Source: Phycisphaerae bacterium (GTDB taxonomy: Bacteria > Planctomycetota > Phycisphaerae > UBA1845). Taken from it: a DNA stretch of 64,000 bases. Of the stretch, positions 37,801 through 54,917 are shown in pieces; positions within the stretch are counted from its first letter, which is position 1, and the number at the start of each line of letters is the position of its first letter. The notes under the pieces were generated by a model, which did not search any database, was not told where the DNA came from, and saw only the letters and a program-made list of their open reading frames with translations. Both the position numbers and the translations under genes were made by a program. The stretch lies in the NCBI GenBank assembly GCA_963666835.2, contig CAXXGO010000006.1:1760001-1824000 (forward strand). Reading direction: 5' to 3'.

Positions 37801-37885
37801 GGTCGGCCTTAGCGTAGCCTGCAACACTGAGCAGGTGATGCTCAATGGCGGTCTCGAACGCGATTTCGCGGTGGTCAATCGGCAT
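34877..37885 (-). CDS. hsdR: Type I restriction endonuclease R subunit
   Basis: D...AELK nuclease motif, HSAGSGKS, VDEAH, FTATP, TGFDQP, QTLSRLNR. Confidence 0.96.
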   Translation of the reverse strand: MPIDHREIAFETAIEHHLLSVAGYAKADPANFYRERAIDPTVLVPFIKETQHEIWEALEKLHGSETEPVVLEDLCKAMDSQGSLAVIRHGFKCFGKLIHVAYFAPAHSMNPDTERLYAANRLTVTRQLHYSTRNENSIDVVLGLNGIPVVTAELKNPMSGQNVGHAKHQYRTDRDPRERIFEFKKRSLVHFAVDPDEVYMTTRLSGKKTFFLPFNLGDATGPGNPENPDGYRTAYLWEQVWQRDSLLDILARFIHLQVEEKTVGGRKIRKETMIFPRYHQLDSVRKLEADARASGVGNNYLIQHSAGSGKSNSIGWLAHRLASLHNDRDEKVFDSVIVITDRIVLDRQLQDTIYQFEHRQGVVEKIDEHSTQLAEALTAGTPIIITTLQKFPFVTEKVGSLPDRRYAVIVDEAHSSQSGESATELKGVLAANSIKEKAKERAEAEGLVDHEEEILKTMLKRGRQPNISFFAFTATPKYKTLEVFGMKGPDGKPNPFHLYSMRQAIEEGFILDVLKHYTTYKTYFRLIKSIEDDPEVDKRKAAQALARFMSLHPHNIAQKTEVMLEHFRTFTKHKIGGRAKAMVATSSRLHAVRYKQEFDKQIREKGYDDIKTLVAFSGTVEDPDTAGVSYTEPDMNRDAEGKPLPEKRLPEKFATDEYSVLIVAEKYQTGFDQPLLHTMYVDKRLAGIQAVQTLSRLNRTCSGKEDTFVLDFVNKPDEIYEAFKPYYEVTHVGEEADPRQLYDLQAKLDERHVYHREEVEEFCKVFFKAKAVQTPSDHGKINAIIDPAVSRFNALDEEEREEFRGLLITFRSLYSFLSQVIPYQDSDLEKLYTYARFLLSKLPRRASGPKYDFDDEVTLKFYRLQKISEGTIQLEPGEGGEVKGPTAVGTRSGEGPQVELSTLIDLINERFGTDFTPADELFFNQIREEAIADEDLRQAAHANTIDNFRFVFYKVLEGLFIDRMEQNEELFAKFMNDKNFQKIVAEHLSQQVYDQIRDEPAA

Positions 37886-38561
37886 TAGGATTACCTGCCC
37901 GAGTAGTCTCTTGTCGCTCGCCTAACGCCTGTTGCTCACTAATATCTACGGCCTCGGCGAAGTTGTTGAGCTCCGCATATGCGTAAAGGAGCACGCCAAG
38001 ACACCCAGCAAGAATCGCTGCACTCGTTCCAGACAGATTCCCGGGAGGGTATAGGGCTGAAGCCACTACGAGCGGAGCAACGAGGTTCCGCACGAGACGC
38101 CCCTGGGCTCTGCGTCGGTATATCTCGGCCTTGCTCTTGTCGCCGCTAACGGAACGCAATGCCGCCCGGTAAATCGCGTTCCATTCGGCCAGCCAACGGC
38201 ACCTGAACATCAGCCAGGATTTCGTTGAACGCTTAACGTCATCGTCAAACCCGGGGACACGAACGAAATCGTCCTGGAGGTTCTTGCGGGTCCGATGGGA
38301 GAGTAGGAACAACATGAACTGACGCGGTCCACGCTCGGATAATCCGTCGAGAATGAACCGACTCACTACTGCGGAGATAACACCGAGGCCGTAACAGCCG
38401 CACAAAAAAGCGAACGCAGATAGACTCTCGCTGCTAAGCTCTGGCTGTGAAGCCGGCGGCGGCCCAACCGGCGTCGCGGTGTGGTTGTAGAAGAGCCAAC
38501 CGAGAATCACGCCGGGTACAAGGTTCTCAATGTGAACGTTGACGTCTTTCCAGAACTCCAT
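37875..38561 (-). CDS. Hypothetical multi-TM membrane protein inside the hsd operon
   Basis: 3-4 hydrophobic segments; overlaps the hsdR start. Confidence 0.7.
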   Translation of the reverse strand: MEFWKDVNVHIENLVPGVILGWLFYNHTATPVGPPPASQPELSSESLSAFAFLCGCYGLGVISAVVSRFILDGLSERGPRQFMLFLLSHRTRKNLQDDFVRVPGFDDDVKRSTKSWLMFRCRWLAEWNAIYRAALRSVSGDKSKAEIYRRRAQGRLVRNLVAPLVVASALYPPGNLSGTSAAILAGCLGVLLYAYAELNNFAEAVDISEQQALGERQETTRAGNPNAD

Positions 38562-38570
38562 TGCACTCTC

Positions 38571-39986
38571 TCACATACGGGCTTCCATGTCGCGTACGTC
38601 AATCTTGCCGGTAACGGCAGCCGAAATCAGGGCGGAGCGGTACTCCTGAAGCCGCTCGATTGCCCTTGAGACTTGGCCCATCAAATCGTCGTGTTTTGCG
38701 GTTGCCGTTTGCAGGTGCTCGCAAATCTGTCCCTGTTCATCAAACGGTGGCAGGAATAGCTCGAACCCCTTCCACAGGTCCGTTCTGAGGCATTTTGTGC
38801 CATGGCCCGACTCTTCAACAAGAGCGAGAAACGCCGGGGCGATTCCTTGGAGGAGATAGGCCAAAAAATCCGCAGATGTCCCTGAGCGAACTGAAATCGC
38901 CTTCATATCTTGGTTGATTGTCACCGGTACGCTAGTCAGCCCGACCGGGAAACTGTGAGACAGAATCATCCCCCGCACAACGACGAGCACCGCCGGGGGG
39001 GCGATGAGGCGAATCGTCGTCTCGCTCACCGCTTCGTCCGTCACGTGGTCTGCCGAGTCGTCTATGATGCGGCGTTTCATGTCCTTGGGAGACACCCAAG
39101 GAATTGAGCCGTTCCAGTATCCAAGATTGTCTTTGCTCGGAGTTCCGCCACCCTGCATGGTCGTGATGTACCCGAGCTTCCGGAGGCACCAGTGCTCCGG
39201 TACGGGGCCGAGCCAGGCGATTCCGGAGTCCTTCATCGGGGCGTCGGGGTTGAGGCCCTTGGTGACGGCGTGGCTGATGAGGGCGGTGCGTTTCTCGGCG
39301 AGAAGTTCGATGAGCCGCTGCTTCTTGGCGATGAGTTCATCTATTCGAGCTGTCTCGGTGTCGAGGAATGTAACGATGGCTCGTTGTTCATCGGTTGAAG
39401 GAAATGGAAACCTGTACACGCGGAGCTGTTCGCCCGTAAGGTGAGGAATCGTATTCGGATTCCCTCGTGCGACGAACACACCAGTCGAAGCCGCATGCAA
39501 CAGTGCGTAGTAGAGATAGCGAGTCAGGTCACGGCTGGCACGCGGGCGAAGTCGGTGAAGAGCTTTCTGATACGCACATCGAGGGAGCTTATCATTCCAG
39601 ATTGCAGCCCGGCCAACCTCTCCTCCTTCACAAACGAGCAAGTCGCCGTGGCGAAGAATGAAACGAGCCTCTTCGCGTGGCTCAATGTCCATGTCCGGCA
39701 AGGCGGAAGTGTCGATGTAATCCCACTGAACGTCGGCATTACGTAGATACGGTGTGAGGTGCTCGCCCGTAATCCGCTTCGCGTCGAGCATTTTTCCGAG
39801 TTCGAGCCAGTACCGGGCGTACAGCGGTGCAATCGCCCATTCCAATGGCACCTCGCCCAGCCAGTCAGCCCCGGAATCGCGATAAACCGAATAGCGGGCA
39901 AAACTACGAGCCCCGGACTCAACCGCTTCGAGAAGCTGCCCAGAACCTGACAAGGCAGTGGACTCGACGGCACCAGAGTGAGTCAC
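38571..39986 (-). CDS. hsdS: Type I R-M specificity subunit
   Basis: SGADWLGEVP, EQRAIVTFLD, MKDSGIAWLGPVPEHW, EYRSALISAAVTGKIDV. Confidence 0.95.
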   Translation of the reverse strand: MTHSGAVESTALSGSGQLLEAVESGARSFARYSVYRDSGADWLGEVPLEWAIAPLYARYWLELGKMLDAKRITGEHLTPYLRNADVQWDYIDTSALPDMDIEPREEARFILRHGDLLVCEGGEVGRAAIWNDKLPRCAYQKALHRLRPRASRDLTRYLYYALLHAASTGVFVARGNPNTIPHLTGEQLRVYRFPFPSTDEQRAIVTFLDTETARIDELIAKKQRLIELLAEKRTALISHAVTKGLNPDAPMKDSGIAWLGPVPEHWCLRKLGYITTMQGGGTPSKDNLGYWNGSIPWVSPKDMKRRIIDDSADHVTDEAVSETTIRLIAPPAVLVVVRGMILSHSFPVGLTSVPVTINQDMKAISVRSGTSADFLAYLLQGIAPAFLALVEESGHGTKCLRTDLWKGFELFLPPFDEQGQICEHLQTATAKHDDLMGQVSRAIERLQEYRSALISAAVTGKIDVRDMEARM

Positions 39987-40531
39987 TTCGAAGCTCCTTT
40001 CGCTTTTCGTCCGGAGCTTGATGCTTGGGCTTTTTTCGTCGGTCTCTTCGCCTTCGCTTTGTATTCAGGAAGGACTTTCGCTTCTTCCGGCAGGACGTAG
40101 GCTCCCAAAAGCAGATGGTCAATCACCTTCATCGCTGCGATGGTCTGCTTTTCTGTCGGAGCCTTCATTTCGTGAGCCGCCTCGTTTCCGAGCAGGCGGA
40201 TTCCGTGGAGAATCTTCGCTCCGGAAGCAGTGAGCAGACTCTGCGTGACGAGATTGTCAATCTGCTCAAAGAGCGACTTGCCGGGCGTCTTTCGTTCTTT
40301 GCAGATAGCTTCGACAATCGCACGTACGCCGATACCAGCAAGCGTGAACAGCCGTTTCTGAATGGAAGCGATTGTCTCTCGATAAATCGCCTGCACGATA
40401 GCCGGTATGCTCCGCACATCGTCACCGAGGTAGAGGCCATCAACACGCACCTCGTCCGGCGGATAGCACTCAATCGACGTGGGAATGTACGGTTCACCGA
40501 AGTTGCTGGCCATCATTCTCCCCGGATTCAC
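39983..40531 (-). CDS. DUF4145 (HEPN-like) protein, probably 5'-truncated
   Basis: GVRAIVEAIC, IRLLGNEAAH motif. Confidence 0.8.
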   Translation of the reverse strand: MNPGRMMASNFGEPYIPTSIECYPPDEVRVDGLYLGDDVRSIPAIVQAIYRETIASIQKRLFTLAGIGVRAIVEAICKERKTPGKSLFEQIDNLVTQSLLTASGAKILHGIRLLGNEAAHEMKAPTEKQTIAAMKVIDHLLLGAYVLPEEAKVLPEYKAKAKRPTKKAQASSSGRKAKGASK

Positions 40532-40850: not shown

Positions 40851-41320
40851 CCCGACAAAGACCATCGTGGGCACACTACGAACATACGTAGTCGCCGGCC
40901 AATTCACACCACTTCCCGACGCCGCCGTTGCATACGGCTAACGTGTTGCGGAACATCAACGCCACTGACCGGTTCTGGGACACCCGGCTCGCAATGGCCA
41001 TGACGCAGCCGTCACGTTCATATGATTGGGAGCCTGACCGTTGGTTATATCCGACACGCTGGTGGGCCGCTGCCCGGGCCGGAATAGATCCGCGAGTAGG
41101 GAAAGTCGTATTCACGTCTTCGGAGGCCGATCTTCGAACCCAGAATGTGCGATACAACGGTGCGGAGATCTAGTCGGGCAATCTGCCCACAGACGAAGAC
41201 CCCTGTCAGCAACAGGTCTTTGAATCGTATAATCAAGCGAAGAACCAAACCGTTGTCGTAGCGTGCCGGATTGGTTATATTTGACCTGGAAGACCACAGC
41301 TCGTGCGGAGGATGGAACGT

Positions 41321-42646
41321 ATGCGCAAAATCGATGCCCGTTTTGACATCATAACCAGCATGTTCCTCGGTGGGCCCGAACCTAATAACGTCCACAAACC
41401 GCACGAGCAAGTACCGAATGGCGTCCGCGGTCGAGTTGCCATCCGGCCCCCGTCGGTCAAGGGGGCGTTGCGGTTTTGGTGGCGAGCACTCCGTTGGAAG
41501 ACGTGGATTAAGGCCGCTGGCAACGACGAAGCCGAGGCGCTCACGCGTTTGGCGGAGGAAGAAGGCCGGGTCCTCGGCGCCGCGTACGATTCCTCCTCCA
41601 ACGCGGGCCAGGCAGCCGCTCAGATCATGGTTACGTCCAAGTGTAAGCCAATCAATGGGGGGGAACTGGGCAAGCGGATCAGTAGCGGACATGGTTACTT
41701 GTTGGGGCAAGGTCTCGCCAGACCTCCGAAGCAAGGTGTTACTGTCTGCACACGCGGAGCGATCGACGGTGCCTTCACGTTGCGTATTCTCCTTCACCGG
41801 AGTCTTGATGATTCCCAGGTTACTACCCTTCGGAATGCCGTACTCCTGCTTGGGCTGCTGGGTGGTCTCGGCGCCAGAGCGCGAAGAGGGTTCGGCTCGC
41901 TCGCGATTCAATCGTTGAGAGATGCTGACGGAGCAGCCGTCCCACTTCCTGAGAATCCGGCGGAGTATGCAGAGACGCTGAGGGGCTTGCTTCATGAGTT
42001 GCCCTCGGATGAGCCACCTTTTAGCGCATTCTCGCGTTACACTCGCGTGGACATCTCCGCAACGCATAAGAACGCTTGGTTCCTTCTCAACCATATCGGG
42101 GAGGCACAGATTGAATTTCGTAGCAACGGAAGGCGGACCGGGAAAGAAAGGCAGAATGCACTCAGGCAACGGGTAGCCCAGATGCCATTCAAAGGGGACC
42201 ACGACTCGATGCTCTCCCTCCTTCCTAGTCTCTCTCCTGGGCAGGGGCCGCCCCTGACGCATCCCCGGCGGGTCATCTTCGGGCTTCCGCACAATTATTT
42301 CTTCGGCAGCGTGAATCGGAAAGAAAGCTGGCGGGGACGGAAGGAGGCGAGGCGCCGCGCCACCGTACAGATCAGCCCTGTCAATGACAAGGACTTTGGA
42401 CGTCGGGCGTCCCCGTTGTTGATTCACATACACAGGTTTCCCACCGGTGACGCCGTCGCGGTGCAGACGGTGATGAGGGCTAGGTTCTTGCCCCCCGACG
42501 AGGGAATCAGAATCGCGGCCGGTGTCAACTCTAAGGATTTCCCTGTCGCGTGCGTACCGGCATGGGATGTCCTCGATGACTACTTGGACGGGTTCGGCTC
42601 ACGGACCACCGTTCTGCCTCTTGTGGAAGGTGGCGAAAATGGATGA
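41321..42646 (+). CDS. cmr1: Type III-B RAMP Cmr1
   Basis: IRPPSVKGALRFWWRA, LGGLGARARRGFGS, FGLPH, RRASPL. Confidence 0.93.
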   Translation: MRKIDARFDIITSMFLGGPEPNNVHKPHEQVPNGVRGRVAIRPPSVKGALRFWWRALRWKTWIKAAGNDEAEALTRLAEEEGRVLGAAYDSSSNAGQAAAQIMVTSKCKPINGGELGKRISSGHGYLLGQGLARPPKQGVTVCTRGAIDGAFTLRILLHRSLDDSQVTTLRNAVLLLGLLGGLGARARRGFGSLAIQSLRDADGAAVPLPENPAEYAETLRGLLHELPSDEPPFSAFSRYTRVDISATHKNAWFLLNHIGEAQIEFRSNGRRTGKERQNALRQRVAQMPFKGDHDSMLSLLPSLSPGQGPPLTHPRRVIFGLPHNYFFGSVNRKESWRGRKEARRRATVQISPVNDKDFGRRASPLLIHIHRFPTGDAVAVQTVMRARFLPPDEGIRIAAGVNSKDFPVACVPAWDVLDDYLDGFGSRTTVLPLVEGGENG

Positions 42647-44681
42647 GATGTACTTCCATTTCACAATCGGCCCGGTCCAGGGTTTTGTCGCCCAAGCGCG
42701 GCGGACGCGGGATTTCTGGGCTGGGTCCTTCTTGCTTTCCTGGCTCGCCGGTGTCGCGATGAACGCCGTGTTGAAGCAGTGCTCGGGGAACAAGACCGGG
42801 ATTGTCTTTCCGAGGCCGAGCAAGGAGTTGCTTGATTGGTGGAAAGGCCGGAAGAGCGATGGGCCTCGCCAGGGGACTATTCCCAATCGCTTTCTGGCGC
42901 GCGTCGACGGCGAGGCGTTCAATCCTCAGACCGTTGTCGACAGCGTTATCTTAGCTTGGCGCGGTTTGGCCGCGGCGGTCTGGGATGCGGATCTTGAGGG
43001 AAAGCCAGGGATCTGCTCAGAGCAACGCGTCATCTGGAACCGCCAGATCAACGGTTTCTGGGAGATCTCTTGGGCATTGACCAAAACGAAAAGCCAAGGC
43101 GACGCGCGCGCACTCGACCAGCGCAAGAATTGGAGGACACGTTACCCCACACCGGAGCCGGGAGTTAGCTGCATGGTGATTGATGGCTTTCAGGAGTTGT
43201 CCGGGGAAAGCAAGCCAGGTGCGAATGTGACAAACTTCTGGGAGCAGCAACGCAAGAGGTTACCAACCGACCTTCGCGAAGGAGAGTGCCTCTGTGCTAT
43301 TGCGTTCGTGAAACGGCGGTTCGTTCGGTGTTTTCATGGCCTCAAGATCGACATGCCCGGCAACTGGACTTTGACCGGATGGCGGGGCCTAACTACAAAC
43401 GTACCCTCGAACACGTTCATGGCCGCAACCCCTTGGCTCGCACGTGTTGTGCGTGCCGCGGCGGACGAACCGGCGCGCAGCGCAGAGGGGAAACAGCTTT
43501 CAGACTTCTACGGTACCGCCAAGGCCCTGGCCGACCACGGTGAACGGGCCACGAAGATCAAGCGGATCGAAGAGGCCGTTGGTGAAGCCCAACGAGCGTA
43601 TCCGGCCCACAAAGAGGAAATCGCGAGATTAGTTCAACTCGACGGATCGGTCTTCTTCGACAACTTGCTTGACAATGGTCGCCTGTTCCAGAAACACACG
43701 GAAGAACACGCTGCGATTGTCAGAGAGAAGCTCAAGAAACTGAAGGAGATCGCAGGAGGTGGTCCGGTGCCATTCTATGCTGTCCTGGCCATGGACGGCG
43801 ATAGTCTCGGCGCGAAGATGAGCAAGGAGGAGAACCAAGAGGGAATCGCCTCCGCGCTGAACGAGTTCACCCAAGCCGTAGCCGAGAAGCTCGTCACCGA
43901 GCATCACGGTTTTCTCATCTATGCTGGCGGCGACGATGTGTTGGCAGTGTTCGCCGCTGAGGACGCGCTTGCGGGCGCAGTTGCGATCCGGGAGGAGTAC
44001 CGGAGGTGCTTCAAGAAGCAGGCCGAGCCGGAGGTCCGCAAGTCCACTATCTCGGCGGCCGTGCATTATGTTGACATCCAGCGCCCGCTGACGCGTGTGC
44101 TCGGTGAGACTCACGATCTCCTCGAGAAGGTCGCGAAAGACCAGACCGGGCGAGATTCGCTGGCCGTTCGCCTGACCAGGCCCGGCGGCGTCTCTTTCGA
44201 GTGGTCCATGCCGTGGGAGATCGCACTGACACCAGAGAAGGACGACCAAGGTCGACCGGTTGAGAGATGCCTTGAGGTGGAGAGGTTGGCTGGAACGCTC
44301 AGACCAGATATGCACCCGGCATCCGACGGCGGTCGCGACAACGAAGAGGGCGGGCGTTTCAGCCATGGGTTCTTCTACAAGATCAGAAATCACATCGCAC
44401 TGCTCAATGGCGGAAACGGCGCAGTGCTGGGTGAGAAGGAAGCTAAGGCGATCCTCGCCACGGACTATCTGAACTCTGGCGTGCATGCACCTGGACGAAG
44501 CCTGACATTCGATGATGCTGTGGCGGCCATTGGACCCCTTTTTCAACAATGCCGCCGCATCACCCGGGATCCGGTCTCGGGCGAGATAGCCACGTTAGCC
44601 AAGGACGAGCTTGGCGAGGTGACCGACGATGCCGCCATGCTGGTTCGCTTTCTCGCGACTACTGTCTATGGAGGGGAGTAA
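42639..44681 (+). CDS. cmr2: Cas10/Cmr2 lacking the HD domain, cyclase motif intact
   Basis: Starts directly at FTIGPVQGFVAQARRTRDFWAGS; MDGDSLG; IYAGGDDVLA. Confidence 0.95.
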   Translation: MDEMYFHFTIGPVQGFVAQARRTRDFWAGSFLLSWLAGVAMNAVLKQCSGNKTGIVFPRPSKELLDWWKGRKSDGPRQGTIPNRFLARVDGEAFNPQTVVDSVILAWRGLAAAVWDADLEGKPGICSEQRVIWNRQINGFWEISWALTKTKSQGDARALDQRKNWRTRYPTPEPGVSCMVIDGFQELSGESKPGANVTNFWEQQRKRLPTDLREGECLCAIAFVKRRFVRCFHGLKIDMPGNWTLTGWRGLTTNVPSNTFMAATPWLARVVRAAADEPARSAEGKQLSDFYGTAKALADHGERATKIKRIEEAVGEAQRAYPAHKEEIARLVQLDGSVFFDNLLDNGRLFQKHTEEHAAIVREKLKKLKEIAGGGPVPFYAVLAMDGDSLGAKMSKEENQEGIASALNEFTQAVAEKLVTEHHGFLIYAGGDDVLAVFAAEDALAGAVAIREEYRRCFKKQAEPEVRKSTISAAVHYVDIQRPLTRVLGETHDLLEKVAKDQTGRDSLAVRLTRPGGVSFEWSMPWEIALTPEKDDQGRPVERCLEVERLAGTLRPDMHPASDGGRDNEEGGRFSHGFFYKIRNHIALLNGGNGAVLGEKEAKAILATDYLNSGVHAPGRSLTFDDAVAAIGPLFQQCRRITRDPVSGEIATLAKDELGEVTDDAAMLVRFLATTVYGGE

Positions 44682-45895
44682 TGACCGATAGCCCCACTCG
44701 CACGTGGCGTTTTGAGCAGGTGGACAGCTGGTTCTTCCGCGAAGCCCGCCCCTACGGGACCATTGGCGGAGTCGAACTCTCGAGTGTGTTCCCGCCACCG
44801 GCACGTACGGTGGCCGGCGCGATTCGGACGATGATCGGGGAGCACCGCGGAGTTGACTGGAAGGAGTTCGCCAAAGAGGGGGATCTTAAGTGGTCGCCTT
44901 TACGGGAACAGATTGGGACGGGACGCGGCGACCAGGAGTTTGGTGCGTTTCGCATGAAGGGTCCGTACTTGGAGTATAAGCGTAGGCGGCTCTTCCCGGC
45001 ACCTTCGCTGCTCCTCGCCGGGCGCAAGGCGAAACAACGCACGCTGACACGACTGCGCCCGGGCGAGGCGTGCGTGTGCGACCTCTCGCAGAATGACAAT
45101 GCCGGAGACCAGTTGCCAGTGCGGCTGCCAACTATGACAGATCCCTTGCCGGGGGCCGAACCGCTGTCTGACTGGCTAACACCGGAAGGCTTCGCGGATG
45201 TGCTGTCAGGCAACCTGCCAGCCTGGGCGGACTGCGTACCGCCCGCCGAGTTGTTCGCGGAGGAACCGCGACTCGGGATCGCTCGCGAGTGCAAACAGCG
45301 CACCACTGTCAAGGGGCTCCTCTACCAAACACGCCACGTACGGCTTAACCCTGACGTCAACGTCCGCGCGGACATTTCGGGTATTGCCGACAGCTTCACG
45401 CCTCCGGCAGGCGCCGTCCGTTTGGGCGGGGATGGCCGCTTCTCCCACGTTACAATAGAAGGTGGTAACAGCGAGCATATTGCTCCGCCGGTTCCTTCCG
45501 ACCCCAACGGCAGACAGTTACTGCTCATCCTTACAACCTGTGCCGACTTCGGCGAAACCGGCTGGCTGCCGAGCGGCTTCGCGCCGCACGCCATTGAGCG
45601 CGGCACCGTGAAAATACGTTGCTGGAAGGGTACGATCGCGAATGTCCCGCTTATTATTGAATGCGCATGCATCGGCAAGACTGTCCGTGAGGGAGGCTGG
45701 GATGCTGCACTTAGGCAACCTCGGGAGGTTCGGTCCTTGGTCCCGGCCGGAAGCGTCTACTTCTGCCGCCTCGACGACGGTGCACCGCAAATCGCAGACG
45801 CAATGAAGGCACTCCACGGTGCTACGGTGGAGGGGCAGGGGACCGAGATCGGCTACGGCGAACTAGCCGTCGGCCTGTGGAACGAAGCTTGTTGA
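44681..45895 (+). CDS. cmr3: Cmr3
   Basis: DSWFFREARP, SVFPPP, LGGDGR, GGWD, VPAGSVY, GYG. Confidence 0.93.
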   Translation: MTDSPTRTWRFEQVDSWFFREARPYGTIGGVELSSVFPPPARTVAGAIRTMIGEHRGVDWKEFAKEGDLKWSPLREQIGTGRGDQEFGAFRMKGPYLEYKRRRLFPAPSLLLAGRKAKQRTLTRLRPGEACVCDLSQNDNAGDQLPVRLPTMTDPLPGAEPLSDWLTPEGFADVLSGNLPAWADCVPPAELFAEEPRLGIARECKQRTTVKGLLYQTRHVRLNPDVNVRADISGIADSFTPPAGAVRLGGDGRFSHVTIEGGNSEHIAPPVPSDPNGRQLLLILTTCADFGETGWLPSGFAPHAIERGTVKIRCWKGTIANVPLIIECACIGKTVREGGWDAALRQPREVRSLVPAGSVYFCRLDDGAPQIADAMKALHGATVEGQGTEIGYGELAVGLWNEAC

Positions 45896-45909
45896 TCAGG
45901 AGGTCAGAT

Positions 45910-46863
45910 ATGAGACAGGCCAATGCAATGCTCGGCCTACTTACGCACACTTCTATGCACGCGGGAACCGGGCAGGCAACCGGTGTGATCGACCTGCCCG
46001 TCCAGCGAGAGGGGCATACGGGATGGCCGTGCGTGTTCGGTTCAGCCGTGAAGGGCGCTTTGCGAACCCGGGCAGTCGACCGCCACGGAAGCGCCGGCTG
46101 GATCTACGACGTCTTCGGACCACCTCCTCCCAGGGACAACACCGCCGCATTCCCTCAACCGGGAGACTACGGTGGGGCGCTTGCGGTCGGCGACGCAAAG
46201 CTGCTGCTGCTGCCGATTCGTTCCCTGAGCACCCACTTCAAGTGGGTCACCTGTCCGGCACTCCTCGGCAGGTGGCAACGCGATATAGAACGAAATCGTC
46301 TGAGTGGCAAGTTCGGCGGCAACTGGGATGTGCCCGATGTCGCTGACGACAGAGCATACGTGGCTACCTCTCCGCCTGACCGTAAGCTGTTTCTTGAGGA
46401 GTTTCGTTTCGACGCAGAGGTTCCAGAAAGCAAGCTCGCAGGCGTAATTGCGTCCCTGACAACACTCATAGACGGAAAGCCGGATCAGGGGCAGCCGGGT
46501 CCAACCCGCAAGGCGCTGGAGAAGCAGCTCGCGATCATCAGCGATGACCGTTTCAGCACCCTCTGCCGTTTCGCAGCGCCGGTCGATCCGCACGTCCAAC
46601 TTTACGACAAGAAGACGGTAGCGCAGGGGCCCTGGTACGAGGAGACGCTCCCGCCCGATACGCTGCTCTACGTCGAGTTATTGGGGCATCCGTCACGCAA
46701 GGACCCCGCATCGATGAGTGCGTCGGACATCATGGACCATGCCACAACCAGTCTCTTTGACGACCATGACTCGTACCTGCAACTTGGCGGCAACGAGACG
46801 GTAGGCATGGGCTGGTGTGGCGTCGCGGTGCACAAGGCGAGCGCCCAGCCAACCAGTAAGTAA
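45910..46863 (+). CDS. cmr4: Cmr4 with catalytic Asp retained
   Basis: HAGTG...IDLPVQRE, WYEETLP, QLGGNETVGMG. Confidence 0.96.
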   Translation: MRQANAMLGLLTHTSMHAGTGQATGVIDLPVQREGHTGWPCVFGSAVKGALRTRAVDRHGSAGWIYDVFGPPPPRDNTAAFPQPGDYGGALAVGDAKLLLLPIRSLSTHFKWVTCPALLGRWQRDIERNRLSGKFGGNWDVPDVADDRAYVATSPPDRKLFLEEFRFDAEVPESKLAGVIASLTTLIDGKPDQGQPGPTRKALEKQLAIISDDRFSTLCRFAAPVDPHVQLYDKKTVAQGPWYEETLPPDTLLYVELLGHPSRKDPASMSASDIMDHATTSLFDDHDSYLQLGGNETVGMGWCGVAVHKASAQPTSK

Positions 46864-46887: not shown

Positions 46888-47331
46888 ATGCAAACCATTC
46901 AGCAGGAGCGGGCGGGGCACGCACTCAAGGGAGTCAATGATGGCCTTGAGGGGCTGAGTGAAAAGGAGAAACGTGAATACCGAGCCGCCGCCCGTGGGCT
47001 CGGTCCCATGGTGCTGTCGAACGGGCTCGGCCAGGCCGCCGCCTTCTATTGCAGCCGAGCGGACAAGACGCACGTCAAGCTCTACGCTCTCCTCTCCGAA
47101 TGGCTGACGGAATCGCAGATGCCGTACCGCGAGAAGCCGAACCTGCTCGAAGGCATCACCGAGGGGAATATGGACCAATACCTGACCGCTCAAGCCGAGG
47201 CGCTTTTGTACCTGCACTGGGTCAGCATGTTTGCAACCGCGCTGATCCGGACGGAATCGAATCCCGGCCGTGCTGCGGGAGACTCAGACGAATCCCCCGC
47301 GCCGGACGCAGAGGAAGGCAAGGTCGAATAA
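46888..47331 (+). CDS. cmr5: Cmr5 (Cas11)
   Basis: QERAGHA, MVLSNGLGQAAAF; operon position. Confidence 0.92.
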   Translation: MQTIQQERAGHALKGVNDGLEGLSEKEKREYRAAARGLGPMVLSNGLGQAAAFYCSRADKTHVKLYALLSEWLTESQMPYREKPNLLEGITEGNMDQYLTAQAEALLYLHWVSMFATALIRTESNPGRAAGDSDESPAPDAEEGKVE

Positions 47332-48164
47332 TGGCAACGCTCCCCCTCTACAAGAACCACAACAGCCCTCCTCGGCTGGATCGCAACCAGAAGCCTCACT
47401 GCGGCCTCTGGTGGGAGAGATTCTGCACTCTGTACCGGTGCGTGGGCGGGAAGTGGATCGCAGCCGAAGCGCAGAATGACAGAGAAAGCTCACCGAAGCT
47501 TGATTGGATCAACGAATTCGCAAGGGACGCTTGTGGCGACCCTGCGATGCTCGCTCTCGCCGAAAGCCGCATGAGGAACCTGTGCACTACCCTACGCGGC
47601 AGCACGCGGACCTTTGCCACCGACTGGCACTTTGTCACTGGCCTCGGCATCGACCACGCCGTCGAAAACGGCTTCGGCTGGCACCCCACGTTGGGTGTGC
47701 CCTATCTGCCGGGTTGCGCCGTGAAGGGCATGCTCCGTGCGTGGTTAACCCACTGGGACGAGGAGGATAAGAGCAAGCTCGACCGGTGGCTCGGCACCTC
47801 CAAAGAGGCAGGCAAGTTCGTTTTCTTCGATGCCCTCCCCCCGAAGCCGGTGAAGCTCACCGCCGATGTGATGACGCCGCACATGGGCAATTGGTACAGC
47901 GAAGGCGCGTCAATCAGCGCTGTCAGCCATGAAGAGTGCAAGAAGATCCCGGGGGATTGGCACAACCCGGTCCCGGTTCCGTTTCTGGCTGTCCAAGCCG
48001 GCCAGCAGTTCGTGTTCGCCGTCGCACCGAAAAGAAGCGGCGACAGCGCAGAGAGTGACCGGAAGGAAGTGGCCGAAGTACTTGATCAGATTGAGCAGGC
48101 TTTGACGTGGATCGGCGCCGGCGCCAAGACCGCAGTCGGATATGGTCGTTTCGAGCGAGTTTAG
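47331..48164 (+). CDS. cmr6: Cmr6
   Basis: ENGFGWHPTLGVPYLPG, DVMTPH, PVPVPFL, GAGAKTAVGYG. Confidence 0.95.
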   Translation: MATLPLYKNHNSPPRLDRNQKPHCGLWWERFCTLYRCVGGKWIAAEAQNDRESSPKLDWINEFARDACGDPAMLALAESRMRNLCTTLRGSTRTFATDWHFVTGLGIDHAVENGFGWHPTLGVPYLPGCAVKGMLRAWLTHWDEEDKSKLDRWLGTSKEAGKFVFFDALPPKPVKLTADVMTPHMGNWYSEGASISAVSHEECKKIPGDWHNPVPVPFLAVQAGQQFVFAVAPKRSGDSAESDRKEVAEVLDQIEQALTWIGAGAKTAVGYGRFERV

Positions 48165-48208
48165 ACGGCGGACGAACACCTGAGTACTACTTTCGCATCC
48201 GAGATGAC

Positions 48209-50971
48209 ATGCCTGTTTCAGCTCCCAGCTTCTATCGACTCCAGGTCACCTTACGCATGACCGCCCGAGCCTCGCTCCCGGCCCATCATGCCGGTGTACT
48301 CTACTCGCTACTGGCCGCGGCCAACGGACGGGCCGTCGATATGGAGCCCGCTCTGCCGGACGGGCTGATGCTCGACGCCCCGGAACAGTGCCGCATGAGC
48401 CTCTCGCCGGGAGAGCGTTATAACTTCGGCTTCACCCTGCTATCCGACAATGACGATCGCGCGCAAGCGTGCATTGACCAGATCCGTGACGGGCTTGCAC
48501 GACACGGCAAAGAGCGTGCCTACGAGCCCCACGTCTTCGGCGGGAACTTCGCCGTTGCCGAACTTCGCGACCTCGTGGCAAACGCACCCATCGAAGCCGG
48601 GCAGGTCCCCGAAGCCATCCCGCTTGACCACCTGGAGGATGAGTGCCGTCGCCTCGAGTCGGAACCCAGGCTCAGTCTGAGTTTCACCTCGCCGTTACGC
48701 ATGCCGCGCCCGACCCGCTTCCGCGAAGAGGGACACGGGTTCTTCGACGGCCACCAGTTCTATACCGGGCTGTTTCTCCTTCGCCTGTGCCGCCGCCTTC
48801 GTAGGCTCGGGTTCCTCGACATCCCGGAATTCGCTCCAGACGACACGAATCACCTGGCTCACCTTGCGGCGAATCGGCTTGTCTGGCTCGACTTTTCCTA
48901 TGGACCACACGGGCAGCGGAAGTCCCTCGGCGGTGCACTCGGTTTGCTCACGGTTGAGCGCGTAGACCCCCGCGCGATTCGCCCCCTGGTACTCGGACAA
49001 TACGTCCGATGCGGCCAGAACACGCGATTCGGACTCGGTGCCTATCGCATCGCGCAGCTCGGCCCGTCGTCGTTTCCCGCCCGACGTGCCGTTTCGCTCT
49101 TGCGGCTCGCCCTGCGGCAGGATCACCTCGACACCGCCGCGCACCGCTATGAGCTCCCCAGCGGTTTACTCCAGACCCTCGCCGGACGCGTGGAGACCGG
49201 CTCCTATCAGCCCGAACCATCCCACAGTGTCACAATCCCCAAGCCGGACGGCGGCGAGCGCACGTTACGGATCGCGTCACCTGCTGACCGAGCACTGCAG
49301 CGGGTGTTGTTTGAACGCCTCGCGCCCGCGGTCGACGCCTTCTTCGAGGATTCTTCACTTGCGTACCGGCGAGGTCTCGGCAGACGCCGCGCCGCTCATC
49401 GCATCCGGCACGCCTTCCGGGAGGGCTACGGACACGCAATAAAGGCCGATTTCTTCCACTTCTTCGATTCGATTGACCATGCCCTCCTTCGAGCTCGCCT
49501 CAGCGCCTATATTGCAGATCACGAGACTGTCGACCTTATCATGCGCTGGGTAGGCGCCGACGCTCCCGAGCTTGGCCGCGGAATCCCCACCGGCTCGCCA
49601 CTCTCGCCTTTGCTTGCCAACCTGTTCCTTGACGAGTTCGATGAAGAGATCGAGCGGCACGGCGGACGCCTTGTTCGCTATGCAGATGATTTCCTGGTGC
49701 TCTACCGCACCCGCGCCGAAGCCGACCGAGTTTACGAAACGGCCGTCCAAGCCGCCCATGCCTTGGCCTTGGTACTGAACCGGAACAAAACCACGCGTCT
49801 CGATCTTACTGAAGGCTTCGAGTTCCTGGGATTCAGTTTCGAACGCACGGATCGTTGGGTCGCCAAGCCCGGGGAAGGGCCCAGGCACCTGCAGGATCTG
49901 GGTTGGCACGAGTCGCACAACAAGCCCAAGCCGGCCCCCAACCGGCTCGCCTTTGCCGGGGAGGACGCCACCATTGAGCCGTCGAACCGTGCATGGGCCG
50001 TGTTCGGTCCGGGAGCCGTAAAGCTGCGAATCAGCAGTGGCCGGCTGTTGTGCGCATACCGGGATGGTTCAACGTCCGCCGCTCACCTCGACCACGTGCG
50101 GAGTGTACTCGTTCTCGGCCGCCCGACTATGTCCTCCGGAGTACTCGAAGCCCTCCGTCACCACAGTGTACCAATGCTCGTCGCCGACGATTTCGGTCGC
50201 TCCCAAAGCACATTCACCCATAACGAGATTGTCGAGCATCCGCAGGCCGTCGCGGCGCAGGTGAACATGCTCCACGACAAACCGCACCGGCTCGCACTCG
50301 CCAAGCGACTCGTCTGGGCTAAGATCTCCAACTACGCCACTTTGGCCGCGTCCCTGCGCTCCAAGACGGATGGAACGTCCGAGACCCTCCGAGCGTATGA
50401 AACGCGCTGCCGCGAGGCCGCCGATATACAGGAACTCCTCGGCTTCGAGGGCGCTGCGGCCGCCGCCTGGTATCGCGTCTTCCCGCGCCTGTTGCCGGAT
50501 TGGTGCCGGTTTTCGCGCCGCGTGGCCCCCGACGCCTCCGACCCCGCCAATATCCTGCTCAACATTGCCCAGTCGGCATTGCACAACCAGTGTATTGCTG
50601 CGGCGCGCCTGGCCGGGCTTTCGCCGGTTGTCGGGGTCCTCCACGATCTGCGGCAAGGTCACGCGGCCCTGGCCTCCGACCTCCAGGAGCCGTTCCGCCA
50701 CCTTATGGACCGGGTGGTCATAGAGGCTATGCCGCTGCTGAAGCCCAAGGACTTCCGGAGAGTCGAAGGCAGCGAGTATCAGCTTACGATCGCTCCCAAG
50801 GCCATCCGCCTGTTCCTCGCGCACCTTTACGAGACGTTCCATCTGAATTGCCGATCGCGCGGCACGCTCGATACGTGCACCTATCTTGCTCATCTGTCGA
50901 TGAACGCCCGCTCCTTTCGCCGGCACCTGCTTGATCGCAAGGTCTTTCCCCACTACTTTCGTCACCCATGA
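48209..50971 (+). CDS. cas1: Cas6-reverse transcriptase-Cas1 fusion
   Basis: Cas6 G-loop GQNTRFGLGAY; RT motifs IPKPDGGER, ADFFHFFDSI, GIPTGSPLSPLLAN, YADD; Cas1 motifs GFEG, GVLH, SDLQEPFR. Confidence 0.93.
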   Translation: MPVSAPSFYRLQVTLRMTARASLPAHHAGVLYSLLAAANGRAVDMEPALPDGLMLDAPEQCRMSLSPGERYNFGFTLLSDNDDRAQACIDQIRDGLARHGKERAYEPHVFGGNFAVAELRDLVANAPIEAGQVPEAIPLDHLEDECRRLESEPRLSLSFTSPLRMPRPTRFREEGHGFFDGHQFYTGLFLLRLCRRLRRLGFLDIPEFAPDDTNHLAHLAANRLVWLDFSYGPHGQRKSLGGALGLLTVERVDPRAIRPLVLGQYVRCGQNTRFGLGAYRIAQLGPSSFPARRAVSLLRLALRQDHLDTAAHRYELPSGLLQTLAGRVETGSYQPEPSHSVTIPKPDGGERTLRIASPADRALQRVLFERLAPAVDAFFEDSSLAYRRGLGRRRAAHRIRHAFREGYGHAIKADFFHFFDSIDHALLRARLSAYIADHETVDLIMRWVGADAPELGRGIPTGSPLSPLLANLFLDEFDEEIERHGGRLVRYADDFLVLYRTRAEADRVYETAVQAAHALALVLNRNKTTRLDLTEGFEFLGFSFERTDRWVAKPGEGPRHLQDLGWHESHNKPKPAPNRLAFAGEDATIEPSNRAWAVFGPGAVKLRISSGRLLCAYRDGSTSAAHLDHVRSVLVLGRPTMSSGVLEALRHHSVPMLVADDFGRSQSTFTHNEIVEHPQAVAAQVNMLHDKPHRLALAKRLVWAKISNYATLAASLRSKTDGTSETLRAYETRCREAADIQELLGFEGAAAAAWYRVFPRLLPDWCRFSRRVAPDASDPANILLNIAQSALHNQCIAAARLAGLSPVVGVLHDLRQGHAALASDLQEPFRHLMDRVVIEAMPLLKPKDFRRVEGSEYQLTIAPKAIRLFLAHLYETFHLNCRSRGTLDTCTYLAHLSMNARSFRRHLLDRKVFPHYFRHP

Positions 50972-51240
50972 GCCAGTATGTAGCCGCCTATGACGTCTCC
51001 GATGACCAGCGCCGGCGTGCGGTTGCGGCCGTTTTGTCATCCTACGGCCAACGTATTCAGCAGTCGGTCTTCGAGATCTGGCTTGAGCCGCCGGAACTTC
51101 CCGAGTTACGCCGCAGCATCGGACCGTTGTTGGCCGTGACGGATGCGTTCGACCTCGTCCCGATCGACAACCGGGGCACACGCCCGCGCTATCGATGGCA
51201 GCGCCCCGTCGAAACGCAGAAGGCCGTTCTGCTCTGTTGA
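50968..51240 (+). CDS. cas2: Cas2
   Basis: YVAAYDVSDD, YGQRIQQSVFE; ATGA overlap with cas1. Confidence 0.95.
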   Translation: MSQYVAAYDVSDDQRRRAVAAVLSSYGQRIQQSVFEIWLEPPELPELRRSIGPLLAVTDAFDLVPIDNRGTRPRYRWQRPVETQKAVLLC

Positions 51241-51561
51241 CACTCGGAAGCCGGCACACATCTGGACAATATGCTCGATCTGTGATAAGATAATAACAGA
51301 GTTGGGCGGCTGCGCCTTGCTGGGCGCGGTCCAACACGTGCATGCCCCCGGCCGGCCTGGGCCGGAACTTTCGCGCAGGGAGGGGCATCCGGCCGAAGCG
51401 TTGACGCCGGCCCCGAAATGCGTGATTGCGAACCCGCCGTCGCGGTGGGAGGTGGAGGTTGTTCTTTCTCATCGGAATAGAACCTATGATCGCGGCTTCG
51501 CTAACTCCTTTTGACCACACCGATTACGTCGCTTCGGCCCATCGGCGCAAGGAACGAGGGG
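51241..51561 (+). promoter_or_regulatory. CRISPR leader
   Basis: Non-coding stretch between cas2 and repeat 1; the degenerate repeat is at the far end of the array. Confidence 0.7.
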
Positions 51562-53441
51562 GTGAAATGAGCCGTCCTTAAGGACCGCAATCAAAACCAT
51601 TCGCAATTCCTTTCACCAGAAGCCAACCTTGTGAAATGAGCCGTCCTTAAGGACCGCAATCAAAACGCTACCTCCTTAAGTCAGTTCTCAGTTCTCAGTC
51701 CTCGTGAAATGAGCCGTCCTTAAGGACCGCAATCAAAACGTCCAGCTACAATCGTCGGCTGTTGCATCATCCGTGAAATGAGCCGTCCTTAAGGACCGCA
51801 ATCAAAACTTGAGGGTGTTGAGAGTGGTCATGATCGGTCTCCTGTGAAATGAGCCGTCCTTAAGGACCGCAATCAAAACCCAGTAAAAAACATTATTAAC
51901 ATGACTAACACCCGGTGAAATGAGCCGTCCTTAAGGACCGCAATCAAAACTCGAATTTTTTTAATCTCCAGTTTCATTATATCTCTCCGTGAAATGAGCC
52001 GTCCTTAAGGACCGCAATCAAAACGCTACCTCCTTAAGTCAGTTCTCAGTTCTCAGTCCTCGTGAAATGAGCCGTCCTTAAGGACCGCAATCAAAACGTC
52101 CAGCTACAATCGTCGGCTGTTGCATCATCCGTGAAATGAGCCGTCCTTAAGGACCGCAATCAAAACTTGAGGGTGTTGAGAGTGGTCATGATCGGTCTCC
52201 TGTGAAATGAGCCGTCCTTAAGGACCGCAATCAAAACCCAGTAAAAAACATTATTAACATGACTAACACCCGGTGAAATGAGCCGTCCTTAAGGACCGCA
52301 ATCAAAACTCAACCGTTCTTTTCGCGTATCCATGACTTTCGTGAAATGAGCCGTCCTTAAGGACCGCAATCAAAACCGTTCGTCGCCGTCTTGGTGATCT
52401 TGCCGTCGCGTGAAATGAGCCGTCCTTAAGGACCGCAATCAAAACCGTTGAAATAAATCTGTGCTAGTTCCACTGACAGTGAAATGAGCCGTCCTTAAGG
52501 ACCGCAATCAAAACTGATACGAACTCCTTAGAAAGGGAACCTTGGCCAAGGTGAAATGAGCCGTCCTTAAGGACCGCAATCAAAACTATAAGCGTTTCAT
52601 CGCCTATACTCCTACCGGGTGAAATGAGCCGTCCTTAAGGACCGCAATCAAAACAGACAGCTTCCGCTTCCGCTTCCGATCGCGCGACTCAGTGAAATGA
52701 GCCGTCCTTAAGGACCGCAATCAAAACGACGACCATTTCTGGTCTCCTTTCTTTCTGGTCTCTTGTGAAATGAGCCGTCCTTAAGGACCGCAATCAAAAC
52801 TGTTTCGCTGGGGGCAGGCGAGCGTAGGGACGGAACAGTGAAATGAGCCGTCCTTAAGGACCGCAATCAAAACCCTTAACGCTACCATAACCAGATCTCC
52901 ATATCGGTGAAATGAGCCGTCCTTAAGGACCGCAATCAAAACTCAGCCATCTCAGCCTCCCTAATTTTTTTTGATATAACCTTGGTGAAATGAGCCGTCC
53001 TTAAGGACCGCAATCAAAACTCCCGAACACCCCCAGAAACCCAACCACCGCCGCGTGAAATGAGCCGTCCTTAAGGACCGCAATCAAAACTTGCCTGTAA
53101 CTAGACTAAACATGATTGTTCCTTGGTGAAATGAGCCGTCCTTAAGGACCGCAATCAAAACGAAAATTTCGTCGCGTGTCATGATATTGTTCGGTGAAAT
53201 GAGCCGTCCTTAAGGACCGCAATCAAAACAGCCGCTCCTGAACTCATTCTGATACCTCACGAAGGTGAAATGAGCCGTCCTTAAGGACCGCAATCAAAAC
53301 CACCGCCACCAGCAGCACCGCAATCATGTTCTTCTGTGAAATGAGCCGTCCTTAAGGACCGCAATCAAAACGTACTATCACCCTACAAGGCGTGCTACCT
53401 CCCGGGTGAAATGAGCCGTCCTTAAGGACCGCAATCAGAAT
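51562..53441 (+). CRISPR. CRISPR array: 27 repeats of 36 bp (GTGAAATGAGCCGTCCTTAAGGACCGCAATCAAAAC), 26 spacers of 32-42 nt, 22 unique
   Basis: Counted by hand; GTCC-TTAA-GGAC hairpin; last repeat ends CAGAAT. Confidence 0.99.
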
Positions 53442-53562
53442 GTGATGATGTCAATGCACTCGGAGGATATTGCGGAATGAGATGAGCGGCCCCCAAGAGC
53501 TTGCCAAGATTGGAGCCCCTGCGAGTGTGAGGAACTCGCCGAATCGACGGGCCTGAAGAGGC

Positions 53563-54861
53563 TTAGTGTTCAGCGGGTGGAGGTACGGTTCGGGCGTTGT
53601 AGATGATCGGCTTGCAGTCCCCCTCGGTCTGCACGTACTGGAATTGGTAGTGATCATTGAGCGTGACTACTACACCCACCGCACTCGTGACCTTCTGCCC
53701 ACCGGTCACGTCGATGACGGTGTGCTCCGGAGGGATACTCTTATGGCCGCGGTCCTTTCTGCGGAGGTCAGGTAGGATCTCGCCGGTGAGCACGTCGGAC
53801 AATTCATCGAAGCTCTCGAAATCCAGGCCCTCTTTTAGTATAAACTCGACGCTGGGAAGGTAGTGCTCGAGAAGCCTCTGGCAATCTCCGCCCCGCCCGT
53901 CCGACCCATACGTGGTGCGTCCGTTCTTGTCCGTCTTCTTGCGCGAGGTCAACAGGTAGACGTACCGGAGCGGCTGCCCCTTGTACGGAGCGATCGCACG
54001 AAGGAGCTGCTGCCAGTTCCATTTGATGTACTTCTCGTCTTCGCCCCAGCGGCAGAGCGGGTCCTTGCTGCCAGGTGTTGATCGAAGAACGTCCTGTGCC
54101 GGATCGTCACCGAGCAGTACGGTCGGTTCTGACGCGCGCTGCGTGCTAACCCAGATCTCTTTCTTGTTCTCGCCTTGGTTGAAGTCGACGGTGAAGGCGT
54201 TGCTCGACACGTGCAGGATCAGCGCCTCTACTTTCCCGCCTTGTTTCACGTATTCGTCCGCGTCGACGGGCTCTGACAGTGTTCGATGCACCGTTAGATT
54301 TCGGTGCAGCCGGTGGAGGATAATTACCCCGCCGACCACTACCGTCAGGGCGACGCCGTACGCCCAGTTCGGCAGCAAGTGGTGTGCGTGTAACAGGTGG
54401 TGCATGACGATGGCAAAGGCATGTCCGGACAAAAGGGCCAGGGCGGCCATGAGCACCTCAAGAACGTGCGCTCTTCGTTTGCTTGCCTCCAACTGTTGTT
54501 GCGACCCGCTCCCTTTCTCCGACGGCTGGGGCGTGAACCGCAGTGAGTGCAGCTTATCCGCGGAGTATACGAAGATCCCCAAAGTGCCGACCGCAAACAG
54601 GATGCCAAGGGCTAGAGCCCAGCCGGGTCGGCCGGAAACCGTGTTCAGCACCTCCACCATGAGGTACGCCATAATATGACCGGCCGCGAGCACAAAGACG
54701 AGTAATACGATGAAACCGATGAGGCTCTTTCGGTTTACGCGACGCCCTTCCTTAGCCGTTGCCACGGTACTGCGCTTCTCCCCCTCCAACGGGGTGCCAT
54801 CGCTATCGCTCTCGGTTGCGCCAACTGGTCGAACCGGCGACTCTCCGTCATCATTGGACAT
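53563..54861 (-). CDS. Membrane CARF effector (4 TM + C-terminal CARF; Cam-like)
   Basis: Four hydrophobic helices; LILHVS and VIDVTGGQK CARF motifs; next to the array and csx3. Confidence 0.8.
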   Translation of the reverse strand: MSNDDGESPVRPVGATESDSDGTPLEGEKRSTVATAKEGRRVNRKSLIGFIVLLVFVLAAGHIMAYLMVEVLNTVSGRPGWALALGILFAVGTLGIFVYSADKLHSLRFTPQPSEKGSGSQQQLEASKRRAHVLEVLMAALALLSGHAFAIVMHHLLHAHHLLPNWAYGVALTVVVGGVIILHRLHRNLTVHRTLSEPVDADEYVKQGGKVEALILHVSSNAFTVDFNQGENKKEIWVSTQRASEPTVLLGDDPAQDVLRSTPGSKDPLCRWGEDEKYIKWNWQQLLRAIAPYKGQPLRYVYLLTSRKKTDKNGRTTYGSDGRGGDCQRLLEHYLPSVEFILKEGLDFESFDELSDVLTGEILPDLRRKDRGHKSIPPEHTVIDVTGGQKVTSAVGVVVTLNDHYQFQYVQTEGDCKPIIYNARTVPPPAEH

Positions 54862-54917
54862 GCGTATTCTCCCTGAAGGGACTTCAGACGAGACGAGCTT
54901 AACCAAATGCAATCAGA

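Follow-up and report, generated by a model that had tools for sequence, protein, structure and literature searches.

The accessible passages of a review (PMC10828431) state that most spacers taken up by the reverse transcriptase (RT)-Cas1-Cas2 of Fusicatenibacter saccharivorans, the Record-seq enzyme, come from near start or stop codons, with the antisense orientation favoured, and that a strong AT bias persists in gene bodies. A 2026 Record-seq paper (PMC13501316), in the accessible part of its text, reports enrichment of the 5' and 3' untranslated regions and gives AT-richness as the main local determinant. The same review passages describe RT-dependent uptake by the type III-D RT-Cas1 of Vibrio vulnificus, with an antisense and a GC bias and none at start or stop codons, and no regional specificity for Marinomonas mediterranea MMB-1; for the latter, the available portion of a preprint (10.1101/2023.09.01.555893) reports spacers from coding regions in either orientation, no regional enrichment, and non-templated 3' tails on the RNA-derived spacers. 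In the type III-A system of Streptococcus thermophilus, which has no RT, excerpts of two papers (PMC8860593; PMC13575424) place promoter-dependent uptake peaks 10-50 nt after start codons, and one of them (PMC13575424) adds that start codon removal increased start-proximal uptake. Here, these systems are compared with the CRISPR array found at 51562..53441 (+ strand) of a 64,000-nt stretch of DNA from a Phycisphaerae bacterium (contig CAXXGO010000006.1, positions 1,760,001 to 1,824,000; hereafter the window), which lies downstream of a gene for a Cas6-RT-Cas1 fusion.

Many spacers of this array, when read on the reverse complement, resemble the start of a gene with its ribosome-binding site, and this bias is real and strand-specific. 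It had been noticed in an original prediction made from the letters alone, which added that no start-site bias of such strength was known in a natural array; precedents do exist, namely the F. saccharivorans RT-Cas1 (PMC10828431) and S. thermophilus type III-A (PMC8860593, PMC13575424), as far as the accessible parts of these texts go. As to natural RT-linked arrays, a full-text search with most subscription journals outside its coverage found no published description of a start-site bias, and six related terms are absent from the text of a 2017 paper on RT-CRISPR spacer repertoires.

Start-site motifs in the window array

In the array, 27 repeats (36 nt) alternate with 26 spacers, whose lengths span 32-42 nt. 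Twenty-six repeats are exact copies, the first at 51562, whereas the 27th (53406) has a degenerate 3' end. Because of an exact internal duplication with an offset of 358 bp (51631-51930 = 51989-52288), S2-S5 recur with their repeats as S7-S10, S6 standing between, and the unique spacers are thus 22. In contigs from three sequencing runs the array is collapsed. Near 52148, a 120-nt contig of a second sample (run X3) matches a repeat and S9, but the 30 letters in front of the match differ from the window; either the neighbouring spacer is another one there, or the contig is chimeric.

Both strands of each spacer were scored by a strict rule: GGAG, GAGG or AGGA, followed by 5-9 nt and then by ATG. 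On the reverse complement, i.e. the target-sense strand, 9/22 unique spacers carry such a site, versus 0/22 on the spacer strand. The nine cases (S1, S4, S6, S15, S17, S19, S20, S22 and S24) had all been listed in the original prediction and, once re-read, are exactly as stated there; its claim that no spacer has a Shine-Dalgarno (SD) sequence plus ATG in the sense direction agrees with the zero count. In 2000 dinucleotide shuffles, a comparison it had also proposed, the mean was 0.90 and the maximum 5, the observed 9 being never reached, and only 1.46% of 200,000 random 35-mers of the host genome satisfy the strict rule (binomial P ≈ 1e-11). Scored separately, an SD core is present on 12/22 target-sense strands versus 1/22 spacer strands and an ATG on 14 versus 6, all 14 with a frame open to the spacer end. 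The host 16S rRNA has the canonical anti-SD tail.

The spacers have a GC content of 0.49, against 0.60 for the window and the genome. AT-richness as the sole cause was considered and rejected, since GC-matched host 35-mers yield only 0.51 strict sites per 22; base composition alone is therefore insufficient to explain the preference. The codons after the start are AT-rich in some start-site spacers and GC-rich in others, and four non-motif spacers, at 62-68% GC, are apparently gene-internal. A few spacers (S2, S14) have stop codons just upstream of an SD.

By adding wider classes to the nine strict cases, the original prediction had arrived at 20/22. Its core holds, with at least 9 and plausibly 12-17 of the 22 unique spacers reading as start sites, while the remaining classes are near chance: spacers beginning with TG are 3/22, compared with 1.4 calculated by chance (22/16), and the class 'SD core or open-frame ATG', which includes 17/22 spacers of the window, also includes 10-13 of the 22-25 spacers of the control arrays described below. 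A relaxed motif admitting GTG and TTG starts was discarded as too permissive (11 observed, shuffle mean 5.6).

The antisense character of the motifs depends on the strand from which the CRISPR RNA (crRNA) is made. Transcription from the + strand, as assumed by the original prediction, is well supported by the polarity of the repeat, which has a hairpin followed by CAATCAAAAC and which ends in ATCAAAAC; the repeats of eight related loci, read on the RT-cas1 gene strand, end in CAATTGAAAC, CAATTACAAC, CAATTGAGAC, GATCAAGAC, CTATTGCGAC or GATTGCGAC, thus sharing a similar ATTGAAAC-like tag. The end of the repeat corresponds to the 8-nt tag that crRNAs from Cas6-processed repeats usually carry, and a mature crRNA with a 5' AUCAAAAC tag is predicted from the + strand reading. 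If the array were read from the minus strand, or not expressed, the antisense reading would be reversed. Orientation is derived here from sequence features only, which leaves some room for such a case; we regard it as extremely unlikely in view of the shared tag after the hairpin, of the degenerate repeat located at the array end distal to cas2 and the leader both in the window and in one related array (L011), and of the coding-sequence antisense orientation that the same rule gives to the spacers of another one (G207, see below). The leader (51241..51561, +), between cas2 and the first repeat, contains one sigma-70-like site on the + strand at 51263-51291, a weak consensus match only, and no Rfam match was found within 51200-53600.

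The position of the start codon was analysed in 22 pooled spacers with an open ATG, from the window array and from the array of an unrelated genome (G139, see below). On average, the A of this codon occupies spacer position 16.8 (standard deviation 8.2, range 3-35), and the start codon is on average 1 nt from the spacer centre (standard deviation 7.7). The original prediction had likened the spacers to ribosome footprints, and capture of ribosome-protected initiation fragments (30S or 70S) would indeed centre them on start codons, as observed; the failure of composition alone to explain the bias fits as well. Moreover, all window spacers with the start codon at position 18 or later, where the SD region is visible, carry an SD core (6/6), compared with an SD usage of ≈38% in the host (background 13%, plus a shallow GC dip), a crude figure obtained from noisy starts, i.e. 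the first ATG or GTG of long open reading frames (ORFs). However, a fixed footprint edge was rejected: besides the wide range of start-codon positions, the 3' end of the nine strict window cases falls anywhere from 3 to 27 nt past the A, and the observed spread is close to the 9.5 calculated under a uniform model in which the spacer must contain the ATG. The length of 32-42 nt, proposed as footprint-like, is ordinary for RT-Cas1 arrays and, in the accessible account of S. thermophilus, uptake without an RT rose after start codon removal. A sharp footprint is thus not supported, while loosely trimmed protected fragments are compatible with the data; as the source of the bias, ribosome-protected fragments appear quite unlikely to us.

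Arrays with and without a fused RT

The host genome has two other arrays, one of type I-G with 25 unique spacers (C1:504347-506155), accompanied by genes for GSU0053, GSU0054, Cas3, Cas4-Cas1 and Cas2, and one with 22 unique spacers (C1:2167014 to contig end), which runs off the contig end and whose repeat we take to be type I-C-like (L035 and L036, respectively). Their spacers, with a GC content of 0.61 and 0.60, equal the genome in composition and show 0/47 strict sites on either strand (Fisher test versus the window, p 9e-6). The start-site bias, which both type I arrays lack, is therefore specific within this cell to the RT-linked array rather than a property of the host or of its invaders generally.

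RT-Cas1 relatives were searched in 400 other genomes of the phylum and 400 genomes of the class, where matches at E 1e-45 or better were found in 9 and 2 genomes, respectively; the full fusion gene was found in none of the same-family genomes searched. A protein-profile scan of metagenomes returned 4 loci only, one of which duplicates L011, and a 26-nt part of the window repeat had 0 matches in metagenome contigs. In G631, G392 and G181 the RT-Cas1 gene is present, with no array within the flanking DNA examined. Together with two metagenome contigs, the relatives provided eight arrays with 117 unique spacers, to which the strict rule, fixed beforehand, was applied; in total, 9 RT-linked arrays and 6 arrays without a fused RT were compared.

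The bias is repeated in one unrelated genome. The G139 array, whose Cas6-RT-Cas1 is 43% identical to that of the window, has 4/11 strict sites, or 7/11 once the SD set is relaxed, none on the opposite strand and 0/500 shuffles reaching the observed value and, by eye, 10/11 spacers resembling gene starts. As for the others, strict target-sense sites are 1/12 in G250, 0/18 in L011 (with a few SD-like cases by eye), 0/12 in G266, 0/48 in G207, and 0/16 in three small arrays together.

Two of these arrays have features of their own. In L011 (13336-14728), spacers 2 and 3 share ≈18 nt and spacers 1 and 19 share ≈22 nt; such long shared stretches indicate that the same target region was sampled more than once. 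In the G266 array (L033), the spacer GC content is 0.56 versus 0.69 for the locus, the initial 11 nt contain an ATG in 4/12 target-sense strands and TG opens one strand, with no SD cores, and these spacers may represent starts without an SD.

A codon-usage strand classifier, trained on host ORFs and 73% accurate on host 34-mers, called 33/48 G207 spacers antisense to coding sequence (p 0.013), and 10/25 and 13/22 spacers of the two type I arrays. Since G207 keeps gene-body antisense guides in an array with 0/48 strict sites, start-site guides are not required for spacer retention.

Type III-B arrays without a fused RT-Cas1 were collected by a Cmr4 search of the same 400 phylum genomes, taking 20 loci from genomes in which RT-Cas1 had no match at E 1e-45. 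These loci contain eight arrays; the two with a type I-G-like repeat were set aside, and the remaining six comprise 84 spacers. Strict sites are 8-9/84 on the target-sense strand versus 2-3/84 on the other strand, one ambiguous array shifting one match. This ≈10% is above the 1.5-3% background and below the 41% of the window (Fisher p 0.002), so that the proposed comparison with non-RT type III arrays speaks for a bias at capture (see below), albeit with arrays that are few, oriented by the tag rule and in one case ambiguous, which tempers it. The type III-B locus of G402 (L056, 15142-17196), which includes Csm6, cannot serve as a plain control, because a primase-like protein adjoins its Cas1: a 684-aa TPR plus archaeo-eukaryotic-primase protein (PF22548, 1.5e-37) is encoded directly upstream of the stand-alone Cas1 and the array, in which 3/12 spacers are antisense to SD-ATG sites.

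A modest excess of this kind is what could be expected if selection acted after capture, with spacers taken from anywhere in transcripts or DNA, and guides against the exposed ribosome-binding-site region protecting far better because their target is accessible, because the nascent RNA is detected early or because initiation is blocked, so that only lineages with such guides persist. Natural arrays do pass through a selection filter, and if invaders differed, arrays with similar enzymes could be expected to differ in their bias, as they do. Yet G207 retains 48 spacers, the majority called gene-body antisense, with no start-site excess, and 9-17 start-site spacers in 22 would demand a very large fitness gap, none being reported in the accessible passages on type III and RT-Cas1 uptake. 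We therefore consider it unlikely that selection is the main source of the bias.

The same ≈10%, the most that phylum arrays without a fused RT reach, bears on transcription-coupled DNA uptake near promoters, with no role for the RT and with the orientation set by selection. Start-proximal and promoter-dependent uptake without an RT is documented in the available excerpts on S. thermophilus type III-A, but the peak there is 10-50 nt inside the gene, whereas the window spacers centre on the start codon, often lie wholly or mostly upstream, and in 12/22 cases include the SD. Such an uptake is, in our opinion, a very unlikely origin of the window spacers.

Origin of the bias

The explanation we tentatively put first, at somewhat less than an even chance, is that the start-site bias arises mainly at spacer capture from messenger RNA (mRNA). 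It is favoured because the DNA-derived arrays of the same cell are without the bias, because G207 does well with gene-body guides, and because one RT-Cas1 is reported, in the passages accessible, to behave alike. Cas6-RT-Cas1 and Cas2 would take short pieces of mRNA, preferably around start codons, as reviewed for F. saccharivorans, and the antisense orientation would be set upon integration, through the disappearance of spacers that fail to protect, or in both ways. The + strand crRNAs would then pair with the SD and start-codon region of foreign mRNAs, leading the Cmr complex to bind the 5' part of the targeted cistron; Cmr4 would cut the target RNA, and the membrane CARF protein encoded next to the array would receive a signal from the GGDD-bearing Cas10. 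We infer each link of this chain, from the RNA origin of the spacers through crRNA expression to every interference step.

Several observations weigh against mRNA capture as an explanation. The seven RT-Cas1 arrays other than G139, once pooled, give 1/106 strict sites, so that the enzyme family alone is insufficient for the bias and some factor beyond it must be at work. RT inactivation as the reason for the unbiased arrays was ruled out by the YADD motif, which is intact in 9/9 properly aligned homologues (of eleven; L019 and L011 are not among them), G207 included, and in the six properly aligned homologues of the seven unbiased arrays. The MMB-1 system has the architecture of the window locus (type III-B effector, Cas6-RT-Cas1 fusion, Cas2), yet no positional or orientation bias is reported for it in the accessible texts. 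The RT itself may be unnecessary, by analogy with S. thermophilus type III-A, which shows start-proximal DNA uptake without one in the excerpts available. Finally, capture bias and survival bias cannot be separated in natural arrays that have been filtered by selection.

The mapping of spacers to phage, plasmid, host and other genomes, proposed as a check of the original prediction, adds to these points, as no protospacer was found. All 26 spacers, searched by blastn-short against the host genome, gave only partial matches of 18-24 nt. By whole-array BLAST, the best match among 50,697 phage records had 80% identity over 46 nt (E 0.5) and 72,556 plasmid records gave two matches at E 0.5, nothing being convincing in either set; for 8 of the 22 unique spacers, the exact core was searched in viral contigs, with 0 matches; and array BLAST against 278 other genomes of the order returned marginal matches only (E 2e-4 to 1e-2 per genome), mostly on the repetitive S16 and S25. 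Consequently, it is from the motifs only that we infer a start-site origin, with the spacers as putative starts of real genes.

The original prediction had concluded either that the enzyme captures translation-initiation fragments in a fixed orientation or that guides against exposed ribosome-binding sites are selected. The bias itself stands; as a general trait of the enzyme clade it is not supported, given the pooled count above, and the footprint idea gains no support from fixed edges.

A bolder proposal goes beyond mRNA capture as such. In some Planctomycetota type III-B systems, the RNA used by Cas6-RT-Cas1-Cas2 might stem from complexes that initiate translation, or else from the start region of invader mRNAs where it is free of ribosomes. 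The array would in that case largely catalogue invader gene starts, and its crRNAs, besides triggering Cmr immunity, would mask ribosome-binding sites. We hold this to be rather improbable. If it were true, unmatched 'enigmatic' RT-CRISPR spacers could be read as RNA-derived from their own sequence. RT-linked natural spacers rarely match anything, and a start-site signature, being a feature of mRNA, would signal RNA origin in nature and would extend a laboratory finding on one enzyme to wild populations. Motif asymmetry is a cheap test applicable to any array, for which targets are not needed, and the fact that arrays with similar enzymes differ so sharply suggests a factor setting which part of the transcript is captured, a matter of relevance for RNA-recording tools.

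The type III-B locus and its known relatives

By its gene matches, the locus is a complete type III-B (Cmr) system with an RT-linked Cas6-RT-Cas1 adaptation module, in line with the original prediction: every gene of the Cmr1-Cmr6 set, Cas10/Cmr2 included, matches type III-B models of Pfam or NCBIfam. All these genes are on the + strand, and their ORF limits are mechanical, with some starts probably placed too far upstream. A cmr1-like RAMP gene (41303..42646; Pfam RAMPs 8e-15, NCBIfam Cmr1 4.9e-10), the start of which is possibly among these, is followed by cas10/cmr2 (42522..44681; Pfam Cas10-Cmr2_palm2 4.9e-33 and Cmr2_N 1.3e-19, NCBIfam Cmr2 4.6e-40), with GGDD at residue 469, and by cmr3 (44549..45895; Pfam Cas_Cmr3 1.7e-58), which passes the Pfam model at 199 bits and stays, with 97.1 bits, just below the NCBIfam cut-off of 100.4. 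Then come cmr4 (45877..46863; NCBIfam Cmr4 5e-51), cmr5 (46888..47331; Pfam Cas_Cmr5 1.4e-26) and cmr6 (47049..48164; NCBIfam Cmr6 8.2e-35).

The cas6-RT-cas1 fusion (48107..50971) codes for 954 aa matching Pfam Cas1 (4.7e-50), RVT_1 (3.6e-28) and, under the curated cut-off, Cas6 (3e-4). The Cas6 domain was accepted nonetheless, because the N-terminal part matches the Cas6 domain of MMB-1 (6dd5, 2.1e-7) and residues 257-911 match PDB entry 7kft from Thiomicrospira (E 1.3e-73), the closest solved relative. The 90-aa cas2 (50968..51240; Pfam Cas2 2.7e-12, NCBIfam cas2 2.8e-9) has its start overlapping the end of the fusion ORF by 4 nt; with Cas2 adjacent and YADD intact at residue 525, Cas6-RT-Cas1 looks active. 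Beyond the array, on the - strand, an ORF of 449 aa (53563..54912) is matched by the PADLOC models Csx1 'TM+CARF' (4.6e-18) and 'CARF, 2 TMs' (7.4e-12), with no match among Pfam or NCBIfam models. Together with the GGDD of Cas10, which we take to be the cyclase motif, this ORF suggests a predicted membrane effector activated by cyclic oligoadenylate.

The DNA upstream of the cas genes (37875-40531, - strand) codes for a DUF4145 protein and for the specificity subunit of a type I restriction-modification system (PF01420, 2e-20), which places the CRISPR locus in a neighbourhood of defence genes. Elsewhere in the host genome, the RT domain has matches at 13 places (E 5.5e-23 to 6.7e-23; e.g. C6:477075-477800), most of them with 508-aa open frames; they give the impression of a single group II intron-type element present in many copies. 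In addition, 4-8 regularly spaced copies of related GC-rich words occur at more than 12 places (e.g. C1:2062770-2063176 and C6:281483-282031); either orphan mini-arrays or a family of dispersed repeats may be behind them.

Among solved structures, the Cas6-RT-Cas1-Cas2 of Thiomicrospira (7kft, 7kfu) is the best relative of the fusion protein, yet a distant one in sequence; the ribosome-binding-site-bearing spacer that appears in the accessible part of that paper was engineered for selection and does not concern natural spacer content. V. vulnificus, as far as the review passages describe it, shares the antisense bias with the window and differs by its GC bias and by having no start-codon bias. 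S. thermophilus resembles the window in the enrichment near starts, its uptake there being transcription-dependent in the excerpts available, but has no RT, a peak inside the gene, and a modest meta-gene enrichment rather than one involving most of an array. With the accessible description of F. saccharivorans, the window array shares start-site motifs in its spacers, their antisense orientation and their AT-richness; the likeness drawn here is one of spacer behaviour. It differs in that, as far as motifs show, no stop-codon class is evident, in that GC-matched host sequence is without the bias, and in that the array is a natural one, whereas the F. saccharivorans spacers described were newly acquired from E. 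coli RNA under overexpression. The window array is thus a natural and unusually strong example of the start-site and antisense preference known from one laboratory RT-Cas1.

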